This document shows positions 2,419-30,815 of a stretch of 33,904 bases of DNA, one piece after another. How positions within the stretch are numbered: position 1 is the stretch's first letter; each line of letters opens with the position of its first letter. A program made the translations under genes and the position numbers. Source of the DNA: Caldilineae bacterium (GTDB lineage Bacteria; Chloroflexota; Anaerolineae; J102); the NCBI GenBank assembly GCA_003694905.1, contig RFJM01000149.1, positions 1 to 33,904 on the forward strand, in the 5' to 3' direction. The notes under the pieces are model-generated. The model made no database searches. It worked only from the letters and a program-made list of their open reading frames with translations, and was not told where the DNA came from.

Positions 2419-3516
2419 ATGTCGGTAAGTCGGCTGTGGGCCATCATGCGTAAGGAGTTCCGGCATGTCCAGCGGGATCGGCGCCTTTTTTTCCTGGTGA
2501 TCGTGTCGCCTACTATCATGCTGCTGGCTTTCGCCTACCTATTCTCCTTTGATGCCACGACGACGCGTCTGATTCTGCTGGATCGAGATCACTCGCCCCA
2601 ATCACGCGCCCTGGTACAGGCCATCGCCACGGATCCCGATCTGGTCATCGTAGGTGAGGCGGTCAGTCAAGAGGAACTGCGGCGGGCAATCCGGGCCGGC
2701 CGTGTGAAACTGGCACTGGTGATACCCCCGGACTTCGGCGCCACACTGGCTGCGGGCCGCCAGGCCCAGGTACTGTTGCAAGGAGACGGTGCCGATCCCA
2801 TCAACTCGAGCATCGAAATGGCGGCTCTGGCCGCGCGATTGCAGGAATGGGCCCAGGCCTATCAGCCCCGAACCTTGATAGCACCGGTCGAGGTGCGTAC
2901 GCTGGTCTGGTACAACCCCGATCTCAAATCCAGCGACAGCATGGTACCTGCGCTTCTGGCCGTTGTGCTCATCCTCCCGGCCATGGCCGTGGGGCTCGCC
3001 GTCACCCGCGAAAAGGAGCTGGGCAGCTTCGAGAGCCTGGCCACAACGCCCGTGCGAGCCAGCGAATACATCTTGGGCAAGCTTATCCCCTACATCATCT
3101 ACGGGCTGGTGGGCGCGGCGCTGGCCATTGCCGTCTCGCTCTTCTGGTTTCATGTGCCTTTACGCGGCAGCGTGCTTGCTCTGGCTGTGCTCACGGCCAT
3201 TTATCTGTGGGCGAGTCTGGGTATCAGCATCTTCATCGCGGGATTTCTCTCCACGCAGAGTACGGCCCTGCGTGCCATCCTTTTGATCTTCCTGGTACCC
3301 AGCTTCTTCCTGACGGGCATTGTCATCCCTATCGATGAACAGGCCCGGCTGACGGCCAACTCGCTGCCGGCCACCCATTTTGTGGCCATCAGTCGCGGGC
3401 TCTTCCTCAAGGGCCTGAGCTGGCAGGCCCTGGGCCCCCACGTCTTTGCCCTGCTGGTCATGGGCACCTTCTCGGTTGCGGGTGCCATTCTCACCTTTCA
3501 CAAGCGCGTTCGCTGA
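2419..3516 (+). CDS. ABC-2 type transporter permease (YbhS/YbhR-like)
   Basis: N-terminal motif AIMRKEFRHVQRDRRLFFLVIVSPTIMLLAF, a large extracytoplasmic segment of about 150 aa, then about five C-terminal TM helices. This is the ABC2_membrane topology. Confidence 0.85.
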   Translation: MSVSRLWAIMRKEFRHVQRDRRLFFLVIVSPTIMLLAFAYLFSFDATTTRLILLDRDHSPQSRALVQAIATDPDLVIVGEAVSQEELRRAIRAGRVKLALVIPPDFGATLAAGRQAQVLLQGDGADPINSSIEMAALAARLQEWAQAYQPRTLIAPVEVRTLVWYNPDLKSSDSMVPALLAVVLILPAMAVGLAVTREKELGSFESLATTPVRASEYILGKLIPYIIYGLVGAALAIAVSLFWFHVPLRGSVLALAVLTAIYLWASLGISIFIAGFLSTQSTALRAILLIFLVPSFFLTGIVIPIDEQARLTANSLPATHFVAISRGLFLKGLSWQALGPHVFALLVMGTFSVAGAILTFHKRVR

Positions 3517-13465: not shown

Positions 13466-13603
13466 AGAGGAGTGGGTGAGGGTTGGTCTTGGGTTGACGA
13501 AAAGTTGATCCCTTCGGGTAATACAAATCGCGCTCCGTTTCGGGTAGATTGACTGCATACGCTCACAACGCGGGCATTCATATCTTCTCAATTGGAGGCA
13601 GTC

Positions 13604-15007
13604 ATGATCTCGAACACCCGTAGACGCCTGTGGATCCTGTCATTGGTTGCGGTTGGCACCCTTGCCTTTGCCCAGACCGCGTTCGCCGCGCAGGACCCCG
13701 ATCCTGTGGACCTGGCGACCAATATCGACGTCATCTGGGTCTTGGTGGCGGCGTTCCTGGTCTTCTTCATGCAGGCCGGTTTTGCCATGGTAGAAAGCGG
13801 TTTCAGCCGGGCCAAGAACGCAGCCAACCTGTTAATGAAAAATCTCATGGACTTTGCCGTCGGCTCCCTGCTCTTCTTTGCCGTCGGCTTCGCTCTCATG
13901 TTCGGAACCGACACCCTGGGTTTGATCGGGCGGGACGGTTTTTTCCTGAGCACGGTGGGTTTTGGGCCCGATAGCAGCATGCAGTGGGCCTTCTTCCTCT
14001 TCCAGCTTATGTTTGCCGCGGCTGCGGCTACCATTGTCTCGGGTGCAGTGGCCGAACGCCTGAAATTTTCCGCCTACCTGGTCTACAGCGTGGTGATATC
14101 CGCGTTTGTGTATCCCGTTTCCGGCCACTGGGTGTGGGGAGGCGGCTGGCTATCGCAACTGGGCTTCATCGACTTCGCCGGTTCTACGGTGGTGCACAGT
14201 GTTGGCGGCTGGGCCGGGCTGGCAGGTGCGATTGTGCTGGGGCCCCGCATCGGCAAGTTCAACAAGGATGGCAGCAGCAACGTGATTCCGGGCCACAGCC
14301 TGACTCTGGCCGCCCTGGGCGTGTTTATCCTCTGGTTCGGTTGGTTTGGCTTCAACCCCGGCAGCACCGTCAGCGGACAGAACCCCGGTATCAGCTACAT
14401 CGCCGTCACCACGAATCTGGCCGCGGCGGCGGCCGCGGTCTCCGCTCTGCTCATCAACTGGTTCAAGACCGGACGCCCCTCCACCGAAATGGCCCTGAAC
14501 GGTGCCCTGGGCGGGCTGGTGGCCATCACCGCGGGCACGGCCAGCGTCACCCCCACAGGCGCGCTGCTCATCGGGCTGATTGCCGGTGGGGTGTTGGTCT
14601 TCGCGCTGGACTTCGTCGAGCGGGTGCTCAAAGTGGATGATCCCGTGGGCGCGGTGGCGGTCCACGGCTTCAACGGCGTGTGGGGAACCCTGGCCGTGGG
14701 CCTGTTTGCTTCGCCCGCGGCGGGCCAGCTCACGGCCATGGGCGATGTGGCCGGGCTCTTCTATGGCGGTGGGTTTGCCCAGTTGGGCGTGCAGGCCCTG
14801 GGTACGGGTGTCATCGGCCTCTGGGCTTTCGGTCTCGCTTTTCTCCTCTTCAAGGTCTGTGATCTCACCTTCGGCATCCGCATCAGTCCGCAAGAAGAGC
14901 TGGAGGGTCTGGACATCTCCGAGCACGGTACCACCAGCTACCCCGAGTTCGGCTCTACGGTCAGCGCCAAACCCGCTACGCGTCTCGCTCCCAACACCAC
15001 CATCTAG
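13604..15007 (+). CDS. amt: Ammonium transporter (Amt family) with signal peptide
   Basis: The ATG at 13604 lies 5 nt after GGAGG. Amt signatures are DVIWVLVAAFLVFFMQAGFAMVESG, DFAGSTVVHSVGGWAGLAGA and AVHGFNGVWGTLAVGLF. About 11 TM helices. Confidence 0.93.
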   Translation: MISNTRRRLWILSLVAVGTLAFAQTAFAAQDPDPVDLATNIDVIWVLVAAFLVFFMQAGFAMVESGFSRAKNAANLLMKNLMDFAVGSLLFFAVGFALMFGTDTLGLIGRDGFFLSTVGFGPDSSMQWAFFLFQLMFAAAAATIVSGAVAERLKFSAYLVYSVVISAFVYPVSGHWVWGGGWLSQLGFIDFAGSTVVHSVGGWAGLAGAIVLGPRIGKFNKDGSSNVIPGHSLTLAALGVFILWFGWFGFNPGSTVSGQNPGISYIAVTTNLAAAAAAVSALLINWFKTGRPSTEMALNGALGGLVAITAGTASVTPTGALLIGLIAGGVLVFALDFVERVLKVDDPVGAVAVHGFNGVWGTLAVGLFASPAAGQLTAMGDVAGLFYGGGFAQLGVQALGTGVIGLWAFGLAFLLFKVCDLTFGIRISPQEELEGLDISEHGTTSYPEFGSTVSAKPATRLAPNTTI

Positions 15008-15033: not shown

Positions 15034-15062
15034 GTGGTCCGCGCCCCCTTTTCACGGACCAC
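15034..15062 (+). other. Intergenic hairpin between amt and the unknown gene
   Basis: GTGGTCCG (15034-15041) pairs perfectly with CGGACCAC (15055-15062), with a 13-nt loop. No convincing T-tract follows, so it is not called a terminator. Confidence 0.3.
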
Positions 15063-15090
15063 ACCTTCACTTCTGCCCGAAGGAGACGCC

Positions 15091-16071
15091 ATGAAACTTT
15101 CCCTTTTTCTCAACGCCGAAGAGGAACAGGCCACCATTCCCTACATCCTCGCCGTTTCCCTGGTCGATGAGGTCATTCTTCCCCACAACCGCTTCCTGGT
15201 ACCGGTCTATCGAGAATCCGATTCGGACAATGCCTCTCTGCTGGCCATCGAGATCTGCGGCATGCGCCTGGAAGCCAGGGAAGCCGAAGCCCTCCTGCCC
15301 CCTGCGGCGCGGTTGCTGGACGGTCTGATCAACATGGCCCGGCTGCCTACCTATGTCTTCATCGCCGCTCCCTCCAGGCAGATCTTCCCGGTCTACACCG
15401 TCGGCGATGAAGTCTTCGCCACGACGCCGGGCGGCCCGGTATTCCGCCATGTTGAGCTGGCGAATGTACGGCAGTATCTCGGCGACTACCTCCACGGTGT
15501 GGCCGTGCTGGGCAGCGGCCAGCGGGAGGAGAAACTGCACGTGCGCGGCGTCGATACCAATACCCTGGGTCTGATCCGGCCCTCTTTCTACCTGAAGAAA
15601 CGCGTGCCCGGCGAGGATGAATTCTGGGCACCGGTGTTTCTCTCTCTCGACGGCCGCGAGTTCTATACCTACGCAGCCAGCGCCCGCCGTGCAGCCCCGG
15701 TCGACAACGGCCACGGCGTCCTCGCCTTGCACGAGCTCGTAGCCCAGGCCCTTATCGACGACGGCCGCCTGCATGATCCCCTCGATTTGCGTCCCGACCG
15801 CCTCTTCCCGGACATGGCCGGCCGGGTACTGGAGGAACTCGTGCCCCAACCCTATCGCCTAACGTTCCGCACCCTGCCCGAGCAGGCACTCGAAACGCTG
15901 GCCGTATACAAGAACGGCAAGATGTACGCGACGCTGGAACATCGCCGTAGCGAAGACCGCTACAATCTCTACTTCGGCGCGGACCCCGCCGACCTGCGCG
16001 AGCGCATGGCTTTCGACCTGGTGCGCCGCGGCAAAATCTCCGACCCCGCGGCCGTCGAACTCGTCGTCTGA
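15091..16071 (+). CDS. Hypothetical cytoplasmic protein (326 aa), no recognisable domain
   Basis: The ATG at 15091 is preceded by AAGGAG. Coding-like codon bias, no TM segments or known motifs. It sits between amt and glnA. Confidence 0.7.
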   Translation: MKLSLFLNAEEEQATIPYILAVSLVDEVILPHNRFLVPVYRESDSDNASLLAIEICGMRLEAREAEALLPPAARLLDGLINMARLPTYVFIAAPSRQIFPVYTVGDEVFATTPGGPVFRHVELANVRQYLGDYLHGVAVLGSGQREEKLHVRGVDTNTLGLIRPSFYLKKRVPGEDEFWAPVFLSLDGREFYTYAASARRAAPVDNGHGVLALHELVAQALIDDGRLHDPLDLRPDRLFPDMAGRVLEELVPQPYRLTFRTLPEQALETLAVYKNGKMYATLEHRRSEDRYNLYFGADPADLRERMAFDLVRRGKISDPAAVELVV

Positions 16072-16266: not shown

Positions 16267-17670
<1,404 letters not shown>

Positions 17671-25185: not shown

Positions 25186-25223
25186 CAATCCAATCCATGT
25201 CAATGAGGAGACCCAGTCCGATC

Positions 25224-27557
25224 ATGCGTACACGCTTAAAGATTCCCGTCCTTCTGACCATTTTGGTCCTGGTATTGCTCTCGTTGGGGACGGCTGTGCC
25301 CGGTGCTGCCCCGGCGGCCAAAGCCCAGACCGTACCCGACGACGAAATCGCTTATGTGGATTCTGCGTCCCGCATACAGATCATCGATCCCTACACCGCA
25401 CCCGGGCAGACCTCCTTCACCTGGACCTCGCCCACAGGTGGTTGGACCGACCTGGCCGTGTCCGACGTCAACGCCGACGGTGTCGATGAGATCGTAGCCA
25501 TCGGCGGCAACAAGGTCCAGCTCCTGGCCCCCTACACCCCGCCCGGCACCACCCCACCCTCCTTCTCTCAAACCATTGCCGGCGGCTTCCAGTACACCCT
25601 TGTTTCGACCGGCGACTTTGTACCGGGTGATGGTGGCCGCGACGAGATCCTGGTTCAGCGCACCGACTTCTTGTCGGACAACGGTTACAGCATCCAGATC
25701 TACGATGGTGATGCCAGCGGCACCAACTGGACCACCGTCTACAACGCCTTCTTCGGCATCGAGTGGCTGCGCCTGGAAGGTGGTGACATCGACGGCCTGG
25801 AAGGGGATGAGCTGGTCATGATGCGCAACGGCCCCGCCAACAACCGTGACAAGCGCATCAAGATCTTGAAGTATAACCCCGCCGATCCCAGCAATCGCTG
25901 GGTGACCATCTTCGAGAATACATACAACTTCCCCTGGGTCGATCTGGAACTGGGCAACACCCACACCAACAACGGCGCTCTGGATGAGATCGTCACTACC
26001 CGGTCGGGCGTGCTGGGACAGCTTGCCTCCTATCTCGTATTCCAGTATTCGGCCAACCAGCTCCACGACGCGCCCAATGGGCAGGGCAAGTACTTCCCCT
26101 ACTGGCAGGACATCGCCACCGGTGACGTGAACAACAGCGGCGATGACGAGGTCTTCCTGATTCGCGATCCCCAGCAGGATGGCGGCATCTCCATGATCGG
26201 CCTTAACTACGGCGCCGACTCCTTCCCCGCAGCCTGGTCCAGCCCCGGCATTCAGTTAGGGAGGACCTTGCAGGTGGTGGAGATGGGTGATGTCGACGGC
26301 GACCAGAAAGCCGAGGTGGTCGTCGCCCGGCCCGGCAGCTATCGCATCTACACCCAGCCGGAATTGAACACCGGCCATGGCGGCGATCAGTCGGCATCCT
26401 TCCGCTCTCCCATTGCTCTGAAGTTGGGGAACTTCGACGGTTCCGGTATCACTTCTGAGCCTCAGCGCCTGGCCGTGAGCACCACCTCGATGCAGTTCAC
26501 CATGACGCGCGGCGGCCCCAATCCTCCCTCCCAGACCTTCCAGGTGACCAACGCCGGCGGCGGTGGACCCATTGCCTATGCCGTCACCCGCGTGATCGAC
26601 GGCGACTGGCTGCAAGTGACCCCCTTCAACGGCGCTACCCCGCAGACCCACACGGTGAGCATCAACGGTGCAGGCCTCAATCCCGGTATCTACGACGGGG
26701 TGATCCTGGTCACGGCCGAAGATCCCGCGGTAGAGGACAGCCCGCAGCAGATCCAGGTGCGGCTCATTGTGGAGGCCACCGGCCCCATCCTCAGTGTATC
26801 GCCCACCAGCATCAGCTTCACCATGAATTTCGGCGGCCTGGTCCCCGATCCCGTGCAGCTCTCCATCCGCAACGTCGGGGATGGGGGTGCCCAGAACTAC
26901 ACGCTGAACGTGACCACCAGCGACGGCGGCAGCTGGCTTAAGACCAGCAAGACCAGCGGTCAGACCGATGACACCGTGGCCGTCTCGGTCGATCCTAACA
27001 ACCTGCGCTCCGGCTCCTACAGTGGCACCATCCAGGTGAATGCCGGCAATATCGAGGGCAGTCCCTTTAGTGTCCCGGTATTCCTGACCATTATCCCCAC
27101 CGGGATGGAGGTCACCCCCTCCTCCATGATGATGCAGGCTCACATCGGTCTGCCCTCGCCCCGCAGCAACATCGAAATCAACCAGTCGGCTGCCGGCAGC
27201 GGTGCCATTCACTGGTACGCCTATGCCGTACCCGCCGGAGACTGGCAGGCCGCCATGGCGGCTCTGGCGGAAGGTGATGTGAAGGTCCTTCAGGATGAAA
27301 GCGGATACACGTTCGTCTCGCCGGACGGCCTCGAACGCCAGGTCAGCTACCTGCCCTGGGTCTACCTTACCCCCGACAATGGCATCACCCCCAGCGTCAC
27401 CCAGGTCTCCTTCGACATGGACACGATTCCCGTGGGCGAACACCGCGTGACCATCATCATCGACGGTGGCCCCGGTACACCCAACCGCTTCCAGGGCGTT
27501 GACTTGCGCGTGCTCGTCAACGACGGCGGTGTCTGGCTTCCCCAGATCTTCCGCTGA
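25224..27557 (+). CDS. Secreted protein: FG-GAP/VCBS-like beta-propeller followed by tandem BACON/Ig-like domains
   Basis: Signal peptide MRTRLKIPVLLTILVLVLLSLGTAVPGAAPAAKAQ (alternative in-frame starts at 25197 and 25203). At least six D-x-(N/D)-x-D-G-x-(D/E)-E-(I/V) type repeats (DVNADGVDEIV, GDGGRDEILV, GDIDGLEGDELV, NNGALDEIV, GDVNNSGDDEVF, GDVDGDQKAEVV). These are followed by two clear homologous modules of about 95 aa (LAVSTTSMQFTMTRGG...GIYDGVILVTA and LSVSPTSISFTMNFGG...GSYSGTIQVNA) and a third, more diverged module. Confidence 0.8.
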   Translation: MRTRLKIPVLLTILVLVLLSLGTAVPGAAPAAKAQTVPDDEIAYVDSASRIQIIDPYTAPGQTSFTWTSPTGGWTDLAVSDVNADGVDEIVAIGGNKVQLLAPYTPPGTTPPSFSQTIAGGFQYTLVSTGDFVPGDGGRDEILVQRTDFLSDNGYSIQIYDGDASGTNWTTVYNAFFGIEWLRLEGGDIDGLEGDELVMMRNGPANNRDKRIKILKYNPADPSNRWVTIFENTYNFPWVDLELGNTHTNNGALDEIVTTRSGVLGQLASYLVFQYSANQLHDAPNGQGKYFPYWQDIATGDVNNSGDDEVFLIRDPQQDGGISMIGLNYGADSFPAAWSSPGIQLGRTLQVVEMGDVDGDQKAEVVVARPGSYRIYTQPELNTGHGGDQSASFRSPIALKLGNFDGSGITSEPQRLAVSTTSMQFTMTRGGPNPPSQTFQVTNAGGGGPIAYAVTRVIDGDWLQVTPFNGATPQTHTVSINGAGLNPGIYDGVILVTAEDPAVEDSPQQIQVRLIVEATGPILSVSPTSISFTMNFGGLVPDPVQLSIRNVGDGGAQNYTLNVTTSDGGSWLKTSKTSGQTDDTVAVSVDPNNLRSGSYSGTIQVNAGNIEGSPFSVPVFLTIIPTGMEVTPSSMMMQAHIGLPSPRSNIEINQSAAGSGAIHWYAYAVPAGDWQAAMAALAEGDVKVLQDESGYTFVSPDGLERQVSYLPWVYLTPDNGITPSVTQVSFDMDTIPVGEHRVTIIIDGGPGTPNRFQGVDLRVLVNDGGVWLPQIFR

Positions 27558-27696: not shown

Positions 27697-28461
27697 TTAG
27701 CGAAACATGTCCAACTCGCGCGGACGCAGCAGATCGGCCAGACGCCCCTCCCCCGCGCGATAGGGCGCGCCCCGCACATGGATGACCGGTGCGCCCTCGT
27801 CGGCACCACCTTGCAACAGCGAAGCCGCTGCCGCCAGCTCGTCGGCCGTTCCCAGTACCGTGACTTCCAGCGTGCGGCCGAAGAGATCACCCTCGCCTCT
27901 GCGGTCGCTTAGGGGCAGCAGACCGGCCACACCAATGGCTACCCCCACCGTCCCCAACCGCCAGGCACGCCCGTGGCTGTCGTTAATCACCACGGCGATA
28001 TCGGCGCCGGTCGCCTTGCGCCAGCGTTCGCGCAGTGCCCTTGCCGTGCCGTCGGGATCTCGCGGCAGCAACAGCACCAGTTCGCGGTCCGCGGCCGTGT
28101 TGGAATGATCGATCCCTGCATTGGCGCACACAAACCCCAGTCGATGCTCCACCACGATCAGTCCCGTGCGGATGCGCAGTACCTCCCGCGACTCTTCCAA
28201 GATGAGTTGTACCAGCCGCGGGTCCTTGGCACAGGCGCGTGCGACCTCGCGGGCAGCAGGCGATACCCGCACCTGTCGCAGGTCACGGTAGCGTCCTTCA
28301 GCCTTGGAGACGATCTTCGACGCCAGAACCAGCACATCGCCGTCTTGCAGATGGATGTGGCAGCGGGCAAGAGCTTCCAGCACCAGCGCGGCCAGATCGT
28401 CTCCCGGCTGCACGAGGGGGAAATCGGGTAGGGCGGTCAGGATGAGTTGGGGGGAGAACAT
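27697..28461 (-). CDS. cofE: Coenzyme F420-0:L-glutamate ligase (CofE / FbiB N-terminal domain type)
   Basis: The start was set at the ATG at 28461-28459 (MFSPQLILTALPDFPLVQPGDDLAALVLEAL). Motifs are DGDVLVLASKIVSKAEGR, GFVCANAGIDHSN, VVINDSHGRAWRLGTVGVAIGVAG and ADELAAAASLL. The 486-aa track ORF extends upstream through the divergent promoter region, which is implausible. Confidence 0.88.
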   Translation of the reverse strand: MFSPQLILTALPDFPLVQPGDDLAALVLEALARCHIHLQDGDVLVLASKIVSKAEGRYRDLRQVRVSPAAREVARACAKDPRLVQLILEESREVLRIRTGLIVVEHRLGFVCANAGIDHSNTAADRELVLLLPRDPDGTARALRERWRKATGADIAVVINDSHGRAWRLGTVGVAIGVAGLLPLSDRRGEGDLFGRTLEVTVLGTADELAAAASLLQGGADEGAPVIHVRGAPYRAGEGRLADLLRPRELDMFR

Positions 28462-28639
28462 GATAGGAGAGACCGGCGGAATAGGATGGCCGCGAGTATA
28501 GCACGATGTCGCGTCTGCTCGCGAACGCCGGAGCACGGCAACCACATGTGATCCGGCATCCCGGCACTTCAGCCTGCCGGGCATGGCAGCGTTGCCCGGA
28601 AACTGTTGGCACGCATGCGCCCCGCCGGATCCCACGGGC

Positions 28640-28668
28640 TTGGAGGCACGCGCGGCCGATCGTATAAT
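28640..28668 (+). promoter_or_regulatory. Candidate promoter of the LarA-like/tag/ycxB-like/methyltransferase operon
   Basis: TTGGAG (28640-28645), a 17-nt spacer, then TATAAT (28663-28668), 37 nt upstream of the ATG at 28705. Confidence 0.4.
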
Positions 28669-28704
28669 GAACCCGGGCCCCTTCATCCCATCTGTCTTCG
28701 TGCC

Positions 28705-30240
28705 ATGACCATCACCGTCACCGTTCATCTGCACAACGCCTTGCGCCGCCGCACTCCGGCCGGCTGGCAGAACCGACTTTCGTTGACTCTGCCGGCCCAC
28801 GCGGCCGTGCGCGAGTTGATCGAACGATTGCAGCTCGACTTTCCGCGCGAAGCCCTGCTGGTGGTCGTCGACAGGCGAGCCGTATCCGAAGATCACCTCT
28901 TGCAAGACGGGGATGTAGTGCATCTCCTCCCCGCCCTGTCCGGGGGGAGCGCGCGGCATTCCTATACCATTCCTTACGGTCGCGGCGAGCTCTCTTTCAG
29001 CCTGCCTGTGCCGGCCGAGATCCTGTCTCCTCGCCGCACACCGGCAGCCCGCGATCCCCTCTCCGTTGTGCGCGCAGCCTTGGCGGACCCCGTAGGCGAT
29101 GTGAGTCTGGCGGACTTCGTTCACGCACGACGGGTGGCAATTGCCGTCAGCGATCAAACCAGGCCCGTTCCCTACCGGTACCTGCTACCTCCCCTTTTCG
29201 CTACCCTGGCGGCTCTGGGCATCGCCGATGAGCGCATCATGCTCATCATCGCCAACGGCGCTCATCCTCCCATGCCGCCGGCACGTTTTCGTGCTCAGGT
29301 GCATCTGAGCGAGAACATCGCAGTAGTCAGCCACGACTGCGACGACACGGTCAACCTGGTCTATTGCGGCGAGACCGCGGCCGGCACACCGGTGTGGGTC
29401 AACCGCCACTTCCACGAGGCAGACCTGCGCATCGTCGTAGGCAACATAGAGCCACACCAGTTTCAGGGCTATTCGGGCGGCGCCAAAGGCGCGGCCATCG
29501 GCCTGGCCGGCCGCGAAACCATCGATGCCAACCACAGCCTGATGACCCATCCTGATGCACAATTGGGGCGCTATGATGATAACCCCGCCCGCCAGGATGT
29601 CGAGGCCATCGGCCGTGCTATGGGCATCCACTTCGCACTCAACGCCATTCTAAATCAAGACAAACAACTGGTGAGCGCCCTGGCCGGTGAACCAATTGCT
29701 GTCATGCGTGCCGGCATACCACAGGTTGGCGCCGCCTGCCAGGTTCGTGTCGAGCATCCCTTTGATCTGGTCGTCGCCTCACCGGGCGGCCATCCCAAAG
29801 ACATCAACCTCTATCAGGCTCAAAAAGCGCTGGCCCACGCTGCGCTGGTGACTCGGGACGGCGGCTTTGTCATTCTGGTAGCAGCCTGTCCGCAGGGTAC
29901 GGGCAGTCCCGAGTTCGAAACGTGGGTTCGGCAACGCCATTCGTTGCAGGATGTTTTGTCCACCTTTGCGGCCGAAGGATTCCGCGTGGGGCCCCACAAG
30001 GCCGTACAATTGGCCCGCGACGCCCGTCGCGTACAGGTGCGCCTCGTCTCGGAAATGGAGCCGGCTCAGGTACGCAGCCTGTTGCTGACCCCCGCGCCCG
30101 ATCTGGACTCGGCCCTGCGCGAGGCCCTGACCGCGCTCCCTTCCCGTCCACGTATCGCCATCATGCCCCAGGCAAGTGCCACCGCCCCCATCCTGGACGC
30201 CGCCCGGCCGGCCTCCCTTTCCCATCCTTTGAGCGCATGA
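28705..30240 (+). CDS. Fusion protein: N-terminal ThiS/MoaD-like beta-grasp domain (ends SGG) plus a LarA-family (DUF2088, nickel-pincer-nucleotide dependent 2-hydroxyacid racemase/epimerase-like) domain
   Basis: The start was set at the ATG at 28705. Residues 1-81 (MTITVTVHLHNALRRRTPAGWQNRLSLTLPAHAAVRELIERLQLDFPREALLVVVDRRAVSEDHLLQDGDVVHLLPALSGG) look like a sulfur-carrier protein. The remainder carries the LarA motifs SDQTRPVP, ANGAHPP, IEPHQFQGYSGGAKG, DANHS and GGHPKDINLYQAQKA. Confidence 0.85.
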   Translation: MTITVTVHLHNALRRRTPAGWQNRLSLTLPAHAAVRELIERLQLDFPREALLVVVDRRAVSEDHLLQDGDVVHLLPALSGGSARHSYTIPYGRGELSFSLPVPAEILSPRRTPAARDPLSVVRAALADPVGDVSLADFVHARRVAIAVSDQTRPVPYRYLLPPLFATLAALGIADERIMLIIANGAHPPMPPARFRAQVHLSENIAVVSHDCDDTVNLVYCGETAAGTPVWVNRHFHEADLRIVVGNIEPHQFQGYSGGAKGAAIGLAGRETIDANHSLMTHPDAQLGRYDDNPARQDVEAIGRAMGIHFALNAILNQDKQLVSALAGEPIAVMRAGIPQVGAACQVRVEHPFDLVVASPGGHPKDINLYQAQKALAHAALVTRDGGFVILVAACPQGTGSPEFETWVRQRHSLQDVLSTFAAEGFRVGPHKAVQLARDARRVQVRLVSEMEPAQVRSLLLTPAPDLDSALREALTALPSRPRIAIMPQASATAPILDAARPASLSHPLSA

Positions 30241-30815
30241 CCCTACAACGCTGTCCCTGGGCAGGTTCAGATCCCCTCTACATCGCCTACCACGACGAAG
30301 AGTGGGGTGTCCCACTCCACGATGACCGCAAGCTCTTCGAATTCCTCGTCCTGGAAGGGGCTCAGGCCGGTCTGAGCTGGCTGACCATCTTACGCAAGCG
30401 CGAGCACTATCGCAAGGTTTTCGCCGGGTTCCAGCCGGACGCTGTGGCCGCGTTCGACGAGGCGATGATCGCTCAACTCCTGGCCGATCCGGGCATCATT
30501 CGCAACCGGCTCAAGGTCCAGGCCGCAGTGCAGAACGCCCGCGCCTTTCTGAAGATCCAAAGTCAGTACGGCAGTTTCGACGCCTACATCTGGCAGTTCG
30601 TCGACGGCAAGGTCATCCAGAATGCCTGGACTTCCCTCGAACAAATTCCGACAGAAACGCCCATCTCGCGGGCGATGAGCCGCGACCTGAAACAACGCGG
30701 CTTCAAATTCGTCGGGCCTACGATCTGCTATGCCTTCATGCAGGCCGTAGGCATGGTAAACGACCACCTCGTCTCCTGTTTTCGCCATTCCGTTCTAGCG
30801 ACTATGCCGCCATGA
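30237..30815 (+). CDS. tag: DNA-3-methyladenine glycosylase I
   Basis: The start ATG at 30237 overlaps the upstream stop (ATGA). RCPWAGSDPLYIAYHDEEWGVPLHDDRKLFEFLVLEGAQAGLSWLTILRKRE and the C-terminal NDHLVSCF are the canonical Tag signature, including the Cys/His zinc ligands. Confidence 0.92.
   Translation: MTLQRCPWAGSDPLYIAYHDEEWGVPLHDDRKLFEFLVLEGAQAGLSWLTILRKREHYRKVFAGFQPDAVAAFDEAMIAQLLADPGIIRNRLKVQAAVQNARAFLKIQSQYGSFDAYIWQFVDGKVIQNAWTSLEQIPTETPISRAMSRDLKQRGFKFVGPTICYAFMQAVGMVNDHLVSCFRHSVLATMPP

Follow-up and report, generated by a model that had tools for sequence, protein, structure and literature searches.

The subject of this analysis is a gene at positions 28705..30240 (+ strand) of a stretch of 33,904 nucleotides (hereafter the window), contig RFJM01000149.1 of assembly GCA_003694905.1 from a Caldilineae bacterium of the Chloroflexota. 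The gene encodes a single protein in which a MoaD/ThiS-type beta-grasp domain, a putative sulfur carrier ending in Gly-Gly, runs in the same reading frame into a LarA-type racemase domain that uses the nickel-pincer nucleotide (NPN). The fusion gene is genuine and is most simply explained by the loss of a stop codon between two neighbouring genes. By profile comparison its carrier half is a member of a family of MoaD-like proteins linked to aldehyde:ferredoxin oxidoreductase (AOR). We tentatively favour the view that the 511-residue product is a precursor of the MoaX kind, which would be cut after Gly81 to release a sulfur carrier for a pterin cofactor together with a racemase; the data do not clearly point to a new way of bringing sulfur to the nickel cofactor.

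The gene consists of 511 codons and a stop, from the ATG at 28705 to the TGA at 30238-30240, and all of its parts are read on the + strand. The beta-grasp domain covers residues 1-81 (28705..28947) and ends in LPALSGG. Its last two residues, Gly80-Gly81, are the predicted processing and activation site and are encoded by GGG GGG, a run of six G (G6) at 28942..28947. The linker SARHS (five residues, 28948..28962) leads to a LarAH5-type NPN-dependent 2-hydroxyacid racemase domain (residues 87-511, 28963..30237), within which lie Lar_N (28975-29565) and LarA_C (29758-30171). No stop separates the carrier and LarA parts, as the frame stays open through codons 80-81, and the junction reads GG-SARHS-YTIPYG, with the LarA partner beginning right behind the carrier Gly-Gly. 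In the primary product Gly81 is thus peptide-bonded to Ser82, and a free C-terminal Gly-Gly is absent unless proteolysis takes place. The LarA frame of the window gene contains no start codon before Val102, and LarA is therefore not made separately from it. In GenBank the protein is entered as RME84725.1 (Caldilineae bacterium metagenome-assembled genome, MAG), a "nickel-dependent lactate racemase" of 541 amino acids, and this public annotation is silent on the extra N-terminal domain. Its start is an ATG 30 codons upstream of 28705 (extension 28615-28704) and is probably placed too far upstream; the ATG at 28705 is backed by the N-terminus MxVTVHLH of the family alignment and by the second fusion gene described below, on contig L001.

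The first 81 residues are recognized as a carrier-type domain by profile and by predicted structure. The Pfam ThiS profile (PF02597) matches residues 27/28-81, scoring 35.7 bits when the domain is taken alone and 32.1 bits when the whole protein is searched (gathering score 22.5), and the end of the profile aligns exactly to Gly81. The NCBIfam moaD and ThiS equivalogs are matched by the N-terminal part only below their cut-offs. An AlphaFold2 model of the carrier domain, built from a 45-sequence family alignment, has a pLDDT of 91.4 and a pTM of 0.80 for residues 1-81; its topology is strand-strand-helix-strand-strand-strand, which is that of a beta-grasp fold, and its C-terminal tip is disordered. 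The top Foldseek matches of this model in the PDB are mycobacterial MoaD structures (6jc0/6jbz, TM 0.76-0.77), and further matches include Mth1743, ubiquitin/SUMO/Urm1, Pyrococcus furiosus MoaD, SAMP1 and TtuB (5ztb). A full-length AlphaFold2 run without an alignment was unusable (pLDDT 31.8). A combined alignment of the fusions, LarA homologues and carriers was likewise rejected, as the carriers were misplaced onto the LarA "FSGG" region in every MAFFT mode tried.

The C-terminal part is, by its motifs, a complete NPN-dependent racemase in which every catalytic and cofactor residue is kept. Pfam recognizes Lar_N on residues 91-287 (184 bits) and LarA_C on residues 352-489 (62 bits), the LarAH5 malate-racemase equivalog of NCBIfam (NF052595) scores 515.1 bits against a cut-off of 462, and the best solved relative is the malate racemase Mar2 (6d6z). 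In the alignment to Lactobacillus plantarum LarA (5huq), the catalytic pair H108 and H174 corresponds to H187 and H251 of the window protein, the residues of NPN anchoring and Ni ligation (K184 and H200) to K261 and H277, and the substrate-carboxylate residues R75, Y294, Q295 and K298 to R153, Y370, Q371 and K374. These eight residues are invariant across the homologues compared. In addition, D72 corresponds to D150.

That the two parts form one gene is confirmed by independent sequences. The Logan contig L139 (SRR7905022), which was assembled independently, differs from the window by one synonymous single-nucleotide polymorphism (SNP) in 1766 bp and is otherwise identical, with the identical fusion protein and the same G6 run. 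The same carrier-LarA architecture occurs in protein P0002 on contig L001, which is 60% identical to the window protein. Its junction, tccgggggagaagaa, is encoded by different DNA (TCC GGG GGA GAA GAA), and its linker, EEHTG, has five residues as in the window. The junction of the window gene sits precisely on the G6 run, and homopolymers are error-prone; an indel there could falsely merge two open reading frames (ORFs) during sequencing or assembly. The probability of such an artefact is nevertheless negligible, given that the same run is found in L139 one SNP away, that L001 is fused too at a different, G5-containing junction, and that in a relative with separate carrier and LarA genes (L054, below) the two already share one frame, so that no frameshift is required. 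Moreover, in the window a separate LarA would lack a start codon ahead of Val102, and a carrier shifted in frame would read on for ~50 further codons. Programmed slippage at the G6 run was also considered and rejected, since neither shifted frame has a stop near the Gly-Gly and the run is absent from L001. An earlier note on this DNA had taken residues 1-81 for a sulfur-carrier-like beta-grasp domain with a terminal Gly-Gly, and had seen the reading frame run on into a complete LarA domain with intact residues. The description is borne out in each of its parts: by the ThiS match, the AlphaFold2 model and the MoaD matches for the carrier, by the Lar_N and LarA_C matches, the LarAH5 score and the 5huq alignment for the racemase, and by L139, L001 and the same-frame genes of L054 for the fusion.

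The family to which the carrier domain belongs was reached from the fusions themselves. With a profile of nothing but the two fused carrier domains, 57 free-standing proteins are retrieved (36-59% identity, E down to 6e-30), among them members adjacent to AOR genes such as P0130 (E 4e-15, 49% identity) and P0135. The window domain is 42-59% identical to the free-standing members P0121-P0177, which are typically ~80 amino acids long (range 77-124). The family signature is VTVHLHTILQRQTP...LQDGDxVNLMPAISGG. Ten positions are invariant (T6, V7, L9, H10, L13, L66, P76, S79, G80 and G81), and all are kept in both fusions; the Ser-Gly-Gly end (S79, G80, G81) is invariant in 46 aligned members, whether fused, tailed or free. 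An exact Gly-Gly end is present in 35-42% of the free-standing carriers, and the remaining 58-65% bear from 1 to >45 residues after the Gly-Gly, in tails that have no conserved sequence. When 1.84 billion representatives were searched exhaustively by profile, 197 carriers came out at E<=1e-10, and the top 150 of these are all short save P0239; such a search cannot count fusions, which are hidden within LarA clusters at 50% identity. P0239 (326 amino acids) was examined as a possible further fusion and rejected: the carrier at 1-79 is followed by low-complexity sequence and, by eye, a C-terminal aldehyde-dehydrogenase-like stretch, and the protein is probably a chimera or a frameshifted gene call. 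As a separate observation, the His10 of the first strand (motif VTVHLHT) is invariant throughout P0121-P0177 and L007-L047, and classical MoaD and ThiS are not known to have a conserved His at the equivalent place.

The genomic setting of the free-standing carriers ties them to tungsten enzymes. With each GTDB species represented by one genome, a scan found 47 loci, 41 of them strong family matches; the pattern used, [VI][NHR][LI][MI]PA[IL]SGG, omits window-like HLLPALSGG ends, so that the subclade linked to LarA is under-sampled in these numbers. The carriers are mostly from Chloroflexota, with others in NC10/Methylomirabilis, Holophagaceae and one Baltobacteraceae MAG. In 33/41 strong loci the carrier gene immediately follows, on the same strand, a gene for an AOR-family protein of ~580 amino acids, and a class-III aminotransferase gene precedes the AOR gene in 17 loci. 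When the neighbours of 44 loci were clustered, only this aminotransferase and lineage-specific synteny recurred. MoaD genes linked to AOR are a published class, for which synthesis of molybdopterin for the tungsten cofactor has been proposed (Iyer, Burroughs and Aravind 2006; PMC1779556). In Aromatoleum aromaticum the MoaD-like aorD and aorE are regarded as maturation factors of the W-cofactor, and their co-expression raised AOR activity (PMC6365974, PMC9295118).

The origin of the fusion can be read from relatives in which carrier and LarA genes are adjacent yet separate, of which there are four (L054, L002, L013 and L035). Locus L054 holds P0003, the closest LarA relative (69% identical). 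Its sequence reads ...HLLPALSGG-TAA-ATC-ATG-GCC-ATC-TAC..., with the carrier and LarA genes in the same frame and a 3-nt gap between them. The five-codon spacing is shared, as stop-Ile-Met-Ala-Ile in L054 sits where the window has Ser-Ala-Arg-His-Ser. A single stop-to-sense substitution would therefore suffice for fusion. In L002 the order is a thrC-like gene, a carrier ending in GGNA, a 12-nt gap and LarA in frame; in L013 it is a TAL/FSA aldolase, GFO/IDH/MocA, AOR, a threonine-synthase-like gene (thrC), carrier and LarA; in L035 it is AOR, carrier and a LarAH6-like LarA. Comparison of these loci indicates that the fusion arose by stop-codon loss between adjacent same-frame carrier and LarA genes of an AOR/LarA cluster, and that the need for a separate LarA start was lost along with the stop codon.

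In a neighbour-joining (NJ) tree of the carriers (~80 columns, without bootstrap), the window, L001 and L002 cluster together, and the AOR-linked L013 is basal to them. The motifs GWQNR and DRRAV are common to these LarA-linked carriers and are absent from the rest of the family. In the LarA tree, also NJ, the window protein pairs with the unfused P0003 (99% bootstrap) to the exclusion of the fused P0002; at least two events of fusion or fission have accordingly taken place. The two fusions are 56% identical in their carrier domains and 60% in their LarA domains. With all ten invariant positions kept and a divergence no faster than that of LarA, the fused carrier domains are under constraint. 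On L001 the fusion gene has a tyrosine recombinase gene as its immediate upstream neighbour, and the start of a second, convergent LarA homologue (2861-3088, - strand) lies 160 bp downstream of the fusion gene. The carrier-LarA architecture is rare, with two lineages: it is found in 2 protein clusters among the best 120 homologues listed from a search of 5.8 billion proteins. A search of the same index with the junction peptides (residues 40-130 of both fusions) returned no match and missed even the query's own protein, so it gives no count of fusions.

The wider surroundings of related LarA genes show the same company in variable order. Among the 80 closest LarAH5-like loci in JGI metagenomes (L055-L134), none has a carrier gene directly upstream of LarA, and 17 have an AOR gene within their short flanks. 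Where at least 1.5 kb of downstream sequence was available (46 loci), a same-strand AOR gene occurs within 2.5 kb in 10, and 4 of these 10 AOR genes are then followed by a more divergent MoaD-like ORF ending exactly in Gly-Gly. AOR directly follows LarA in L081 and L098, with a 4-nt overlap in the latter, and a threonine-synthase-like PALP gene adjoins LarA in 7 loci. LarA, AOR and the MoaD-like carrier thus recur as members of one neighbourhood, and the window gene is its extreme case, with the carrier welded to LarA and no AOR within 34 kb.

A further observation concerns what these neighbourhoods may be for. Chloroflexota LarAH5-like genes in L111, L102, L135, L013 and L136/L137 lie near a GH31 fragment, a TAL/FSA aldolase, ComA (phosphosulfolactate synthase), an altronate/galactarate-dehydratase-like protein, PF03601 membrane proteins, AOR and a MoaD-like ORF. 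These gene sets look like those of sulfosugar, sulfolactate or sugar-acid catabolism, and these malate racemase-like enzymes might racemise sulfolactate or another AOR product. No report linking nickel-pincer enzymes with sulfolactate was found in the literature searched.

A thiocarboxylate forms only on a free C-terminal glycine, and the fused protein as translated therefore cannot be a carrier. If the carriers of this family use a C-terminal thiocarboxylate, the tails borne by most free-standing members imply that removal of residues behind the Gly-Gly would be routine in these organisms. The invariance of Ser-Gly-Gly, the commonness of such tails and the existence of precedents for cleavage are the reasons for which we favour, still with some reserve, a precursor of the MoaX kind. 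The N-terminal 81 residues would fold as a beta-grasp domain with a flexible ...LPALSGG tail, and a peptidase encoded elsewhere, of JAMM/MPN+ type or similar, would cut behind Gly81. The released carrier would be adenylated and thiocarboxylated by a MoeB/ThiF-like E1 and would then give the dithiolene sulfur for the tungsto- or molybdopterin of AOR. The released LarA domain, beginning with Ser82, would use NPN to racemise malate or a similar small 2-hydroxyacid. The fusion itself would only ensure that these two products of one gene cluster are made in a 1:1 ratio. The cut behind Gly81, the thiocarboxylate, the service of the carrier to a pterin cofactor and the substrate of the racemase are what we infer here.

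Two precedents are close in design. MoaX of Mycobacterium tuberculosis is cut between Gly82 and Ser83, and its activity requires this cleavage (PMC4326299); the MoaD-MoaE fusion of Deinococcus radiodurans is cleaved by DRJAMM (PMC8832034). As in the window protein, both have an N-terminal MoaD beta-grasp domain with the product of a neighbouring gene right after the Gly-Gly, and the Gly82|Ser83 junction of MoaX is matched by Gly81|Ser82 in the window. The difference lies in the partner, which in the window is LarA and not MoaE, the direct catalytic partner of the carrier. An NPN-dependent racemase is not known to need a sulfur carrier.

Several observations weigh against such a precursor. The Pfam scan of the ~30 ORFs of the 34-kb window revealed no larB/C/E, ThiF/MoeB, MoaE or JAMM gene, in agreement with the earlier note, which had reported larB, larC, larE, E1-like and JAMM genes to be missing; nor was an AOR gene (AFOR_N/AFOR_C) found there, unlike in L013 and L035. 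Thus neither the peptidase, nor the E1, nor MoaE, nor the AOR called for by the proposed pathway is encoded in the window. Neighbour clustering of the 44 loci likewise found no E1, JAMM or MoaE as a recurrent neighbour of the AOR-carrier pairs. The LarA-linked carriers (window, L001 and L002, with L013 basal) form a clade of their own with shared motifs, and they stay with LarA even where the available flanks hold no AOR, so they could have a role specific to LarA. Gly81 is only five residues from the first conserved LarA segment, and a protease may be hindered there. Noise in gene calling or assembly may account for some of the tails behind the Gly-Gly.

A somewhat doubtful reading, the main rival to the precursor, is that the fusion is never cleaved and that the beta-grasp domain has a non-catalytic part, as a docking or adaptor module for AOR or another partner, as an aid to solubility or oligomerisation, or in ligand binding, the Gly-Gly being merely an inherited feature. 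The linker is very short and has exactly five residues in both fusion lineages, no protease gene is nearby in the window, and the reuse of beta-grasp domains as adaptors or for ligand binding is widespread (PMC1949818). A MoaD-AOR fusion has been reported in Azoarcus, with MoaD at the C-terminus (PMC1779556), and the Gly-Gly is blocked in most free-standing carriers, so that a free C-terminus is perhaps not needed. The equal linker length, however, simply follows from descent of the stop-Ile-Met spacing, the closest relatives are two separate proteins, and unless there is C-terminal chemistry or processing, the invariance of S79, G80 and G81 in the 46 members has no easy explanation. The fusion could also be a neutral accident, in which the stop was lost by point mutation, LarA works anyway and the carrier is decaying, functionless baggage. 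One stop-to-sense change in an L054-like ancestor would be enough for this, the architecture is very rare (2 among the best 120 homologues listed), and the window gene stands amid unrelated housekeeping genes such as cofE and tag. Such an accident is unlikely all the same, as neither of the two fused lineages, at 60% identity, has lost any of the family-invariant residues, divergence of the carrier domains has not outpaced that of LarA (56% vs 60% identity), and the AlphaFold2 model of the carrier domain is confident.

It is distinctly unlikely that the carrier serves the NPN cofactor. In that case its released thiocarboxylate would either supply a [4Fe-4S]-type LarE with sulfur, much as TtuB supplies TtuA, or repair the NPN thioacids. 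The idea has a mechanistic basis, since [4Fe-4S] LarE resembles TtuA, whose donor in Thermus is the ThiS/MoaD-like thiocarboxylate TtuB (PMC9283937), and one of the Foldseek matches of the carrier domain is TtuB (5ztb); in addition, a distinct carrier subclade adjoins LarA or is fused with it, with no adjacent AOR, and fusion or fission has occurred at least twice. The carrier family as a whole is linked to AOR (33/41 loci), though, and the link is to the user of the cofactor, LarA, and not to its makers LarE, LarB and LarC. The window and the scanned flanks of L013 and L035 yielded no lar biosynthesis gene, the contigs L001, L002 and L054 being almost flankless, and with a carrier directly upstream in 0/80 of the closest LarAH5-like loci, such LarA enzymes generally manage without one. 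A specific form of this idea, namely that the LarA-linked carriers (window, L001, L002 and L054) were recruited from tungsten duty to the nickel-pincer cofactor, as thiocarboxylate donors for a [4Fe-4S] LarE or for NPN re-sulfuration on LarA, appears very improbable. The earlier note had left three options open. Among them the MoaX-like precursor fits best, a structural appendage comes next, and an alternative sulfur route to NPN, for which there is no specific evidence, is the least supported.

Set against known systems, both halves of the protein belong to known families and the principle of fusion is known, and it is LarA as the partner that is new in the literature searched. Fusions of MoaD or ThiS to operon partners are on record as MoaD-MoaE, ThiS-ThiG, ThiS-sulfite reductase and MoaD-AOR (PMC1779556). 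Neither that survey nor the LarA-superfamily literature searched mentions a combination of carrier and LarA/DUF2088, and the rarity of the architecture among homologues fits the impression of the earlier note that it had not been described. As in the AOR-linked class, where small MoaD-like proteins are encoded directly beside tungsten AOR genes, the family of the window carrier keeps company with AOR, whereas the window carrier itself has no adjacent AOR and is covalently joined to LarA; the likeness of aorD/aorE to the Chloroflexota carriers is one of class and not of direct comparison. The C-terminal 425 residues share the NPN-binding and catalytic residues of the malate racemases LarAH5/Mar1 and LarAH6/Mar2. 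The described LarA homologues and nearly all of the best 120 listed have ~420 amino acids and, unlike the window protein, no N-terminal domain, and the neighbours of the Chloroflexota clade suggest sulfosugar or sugar-acid metabolism and not malate. TtuB and TtuA are similar by analogy only: there a ThiS/MoaD-like carrier feeds a PP-loop [4Fe-4S] enzyme of the LarE type (PMC9283937), whereas no LarE is linked to the window carrier.

If the protein is indeed a precursor cut after Gly81, the MoaX principle would be extended to a partner that is not the carrier's own enzyme, and a widespread Gly-Gly-processing activity in Chloroflexota would be indicated. If instead the carrier served NPN, it would explain the in vivo sulfur source of [4Fe-4S] LarE enzymes, and nickel-pincer cofactor biosynthesis would gain its first ubiquitin-like sulfur carrier. 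Through the fusion and its unfused relatives, a MoaD-like carrier, a nickel NPN racemase and a tungsten AOR are brought together in one neighbourhood. This neighbourhood is a starting point for finding the substrate of the large, uncharacterised "malate racemase-like" LarA branch of the Chloroflexota, for which sulfolactate or another 2-hydroxyacid from aldehyde oxidation is a candidate.

In the window the fusion gene is apparently co-transcribed with unrelated housekeeping genes, namely tag, a ycxB-like gene and an N6/N4 DNA methyltransferase gene. The ATG of tag (DNA-3-methyladenine glycosylase I, 30237..30815, + strand) overlaps the TGA of the fusion gene (ATGA, 30237-30240), and because of this overlap the two are probably co-transcribed and translationally coupled. 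Upstream, the divergent neighbour is cofE (F420-0:gamma-glutamyl ligase, 27697..28449, - strand), separated by a 255-nt intergenic region. A promoter scan called no consensus sigma-70 promoter upstream of the fusion gene; a TATAAT-like hexamer is visible by eye at ~28663-28668, within the extension annotated in GenBank. In the 255-nt leader, Rfam gave nothing above noise for Moco, NiCo or other riboswitch families, and at gathering scores the whole window had zero matches.

According to Pfam, the other genes of the window encode a Yip1-domain protein, a TetR regulator, ABC-2 transporters, HlyD-like proteins, two alcohol dehydrogenases, Obg, AmtB, GlnA, SecD/SecF and a GAF-domain histidine kinase with a LuxR-type regulator. 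A PII gene (glnB/glnK) usually occupies the place between amtB and glnA. In the window, a 345-residue ORF (15034-16071, + strand) with no Pfam match lies between amtB (13592-15007) and glnA (16267-17670). Two genes upstream of the fusion, beyond cofE, a 786-residue protein with FG-GAP and BACON-like repeats is encoded (25197-27557, + strand), and it is apparently secreted or membrane-anchored, as judged by eye from a hydrophobic N-terminal stretch.

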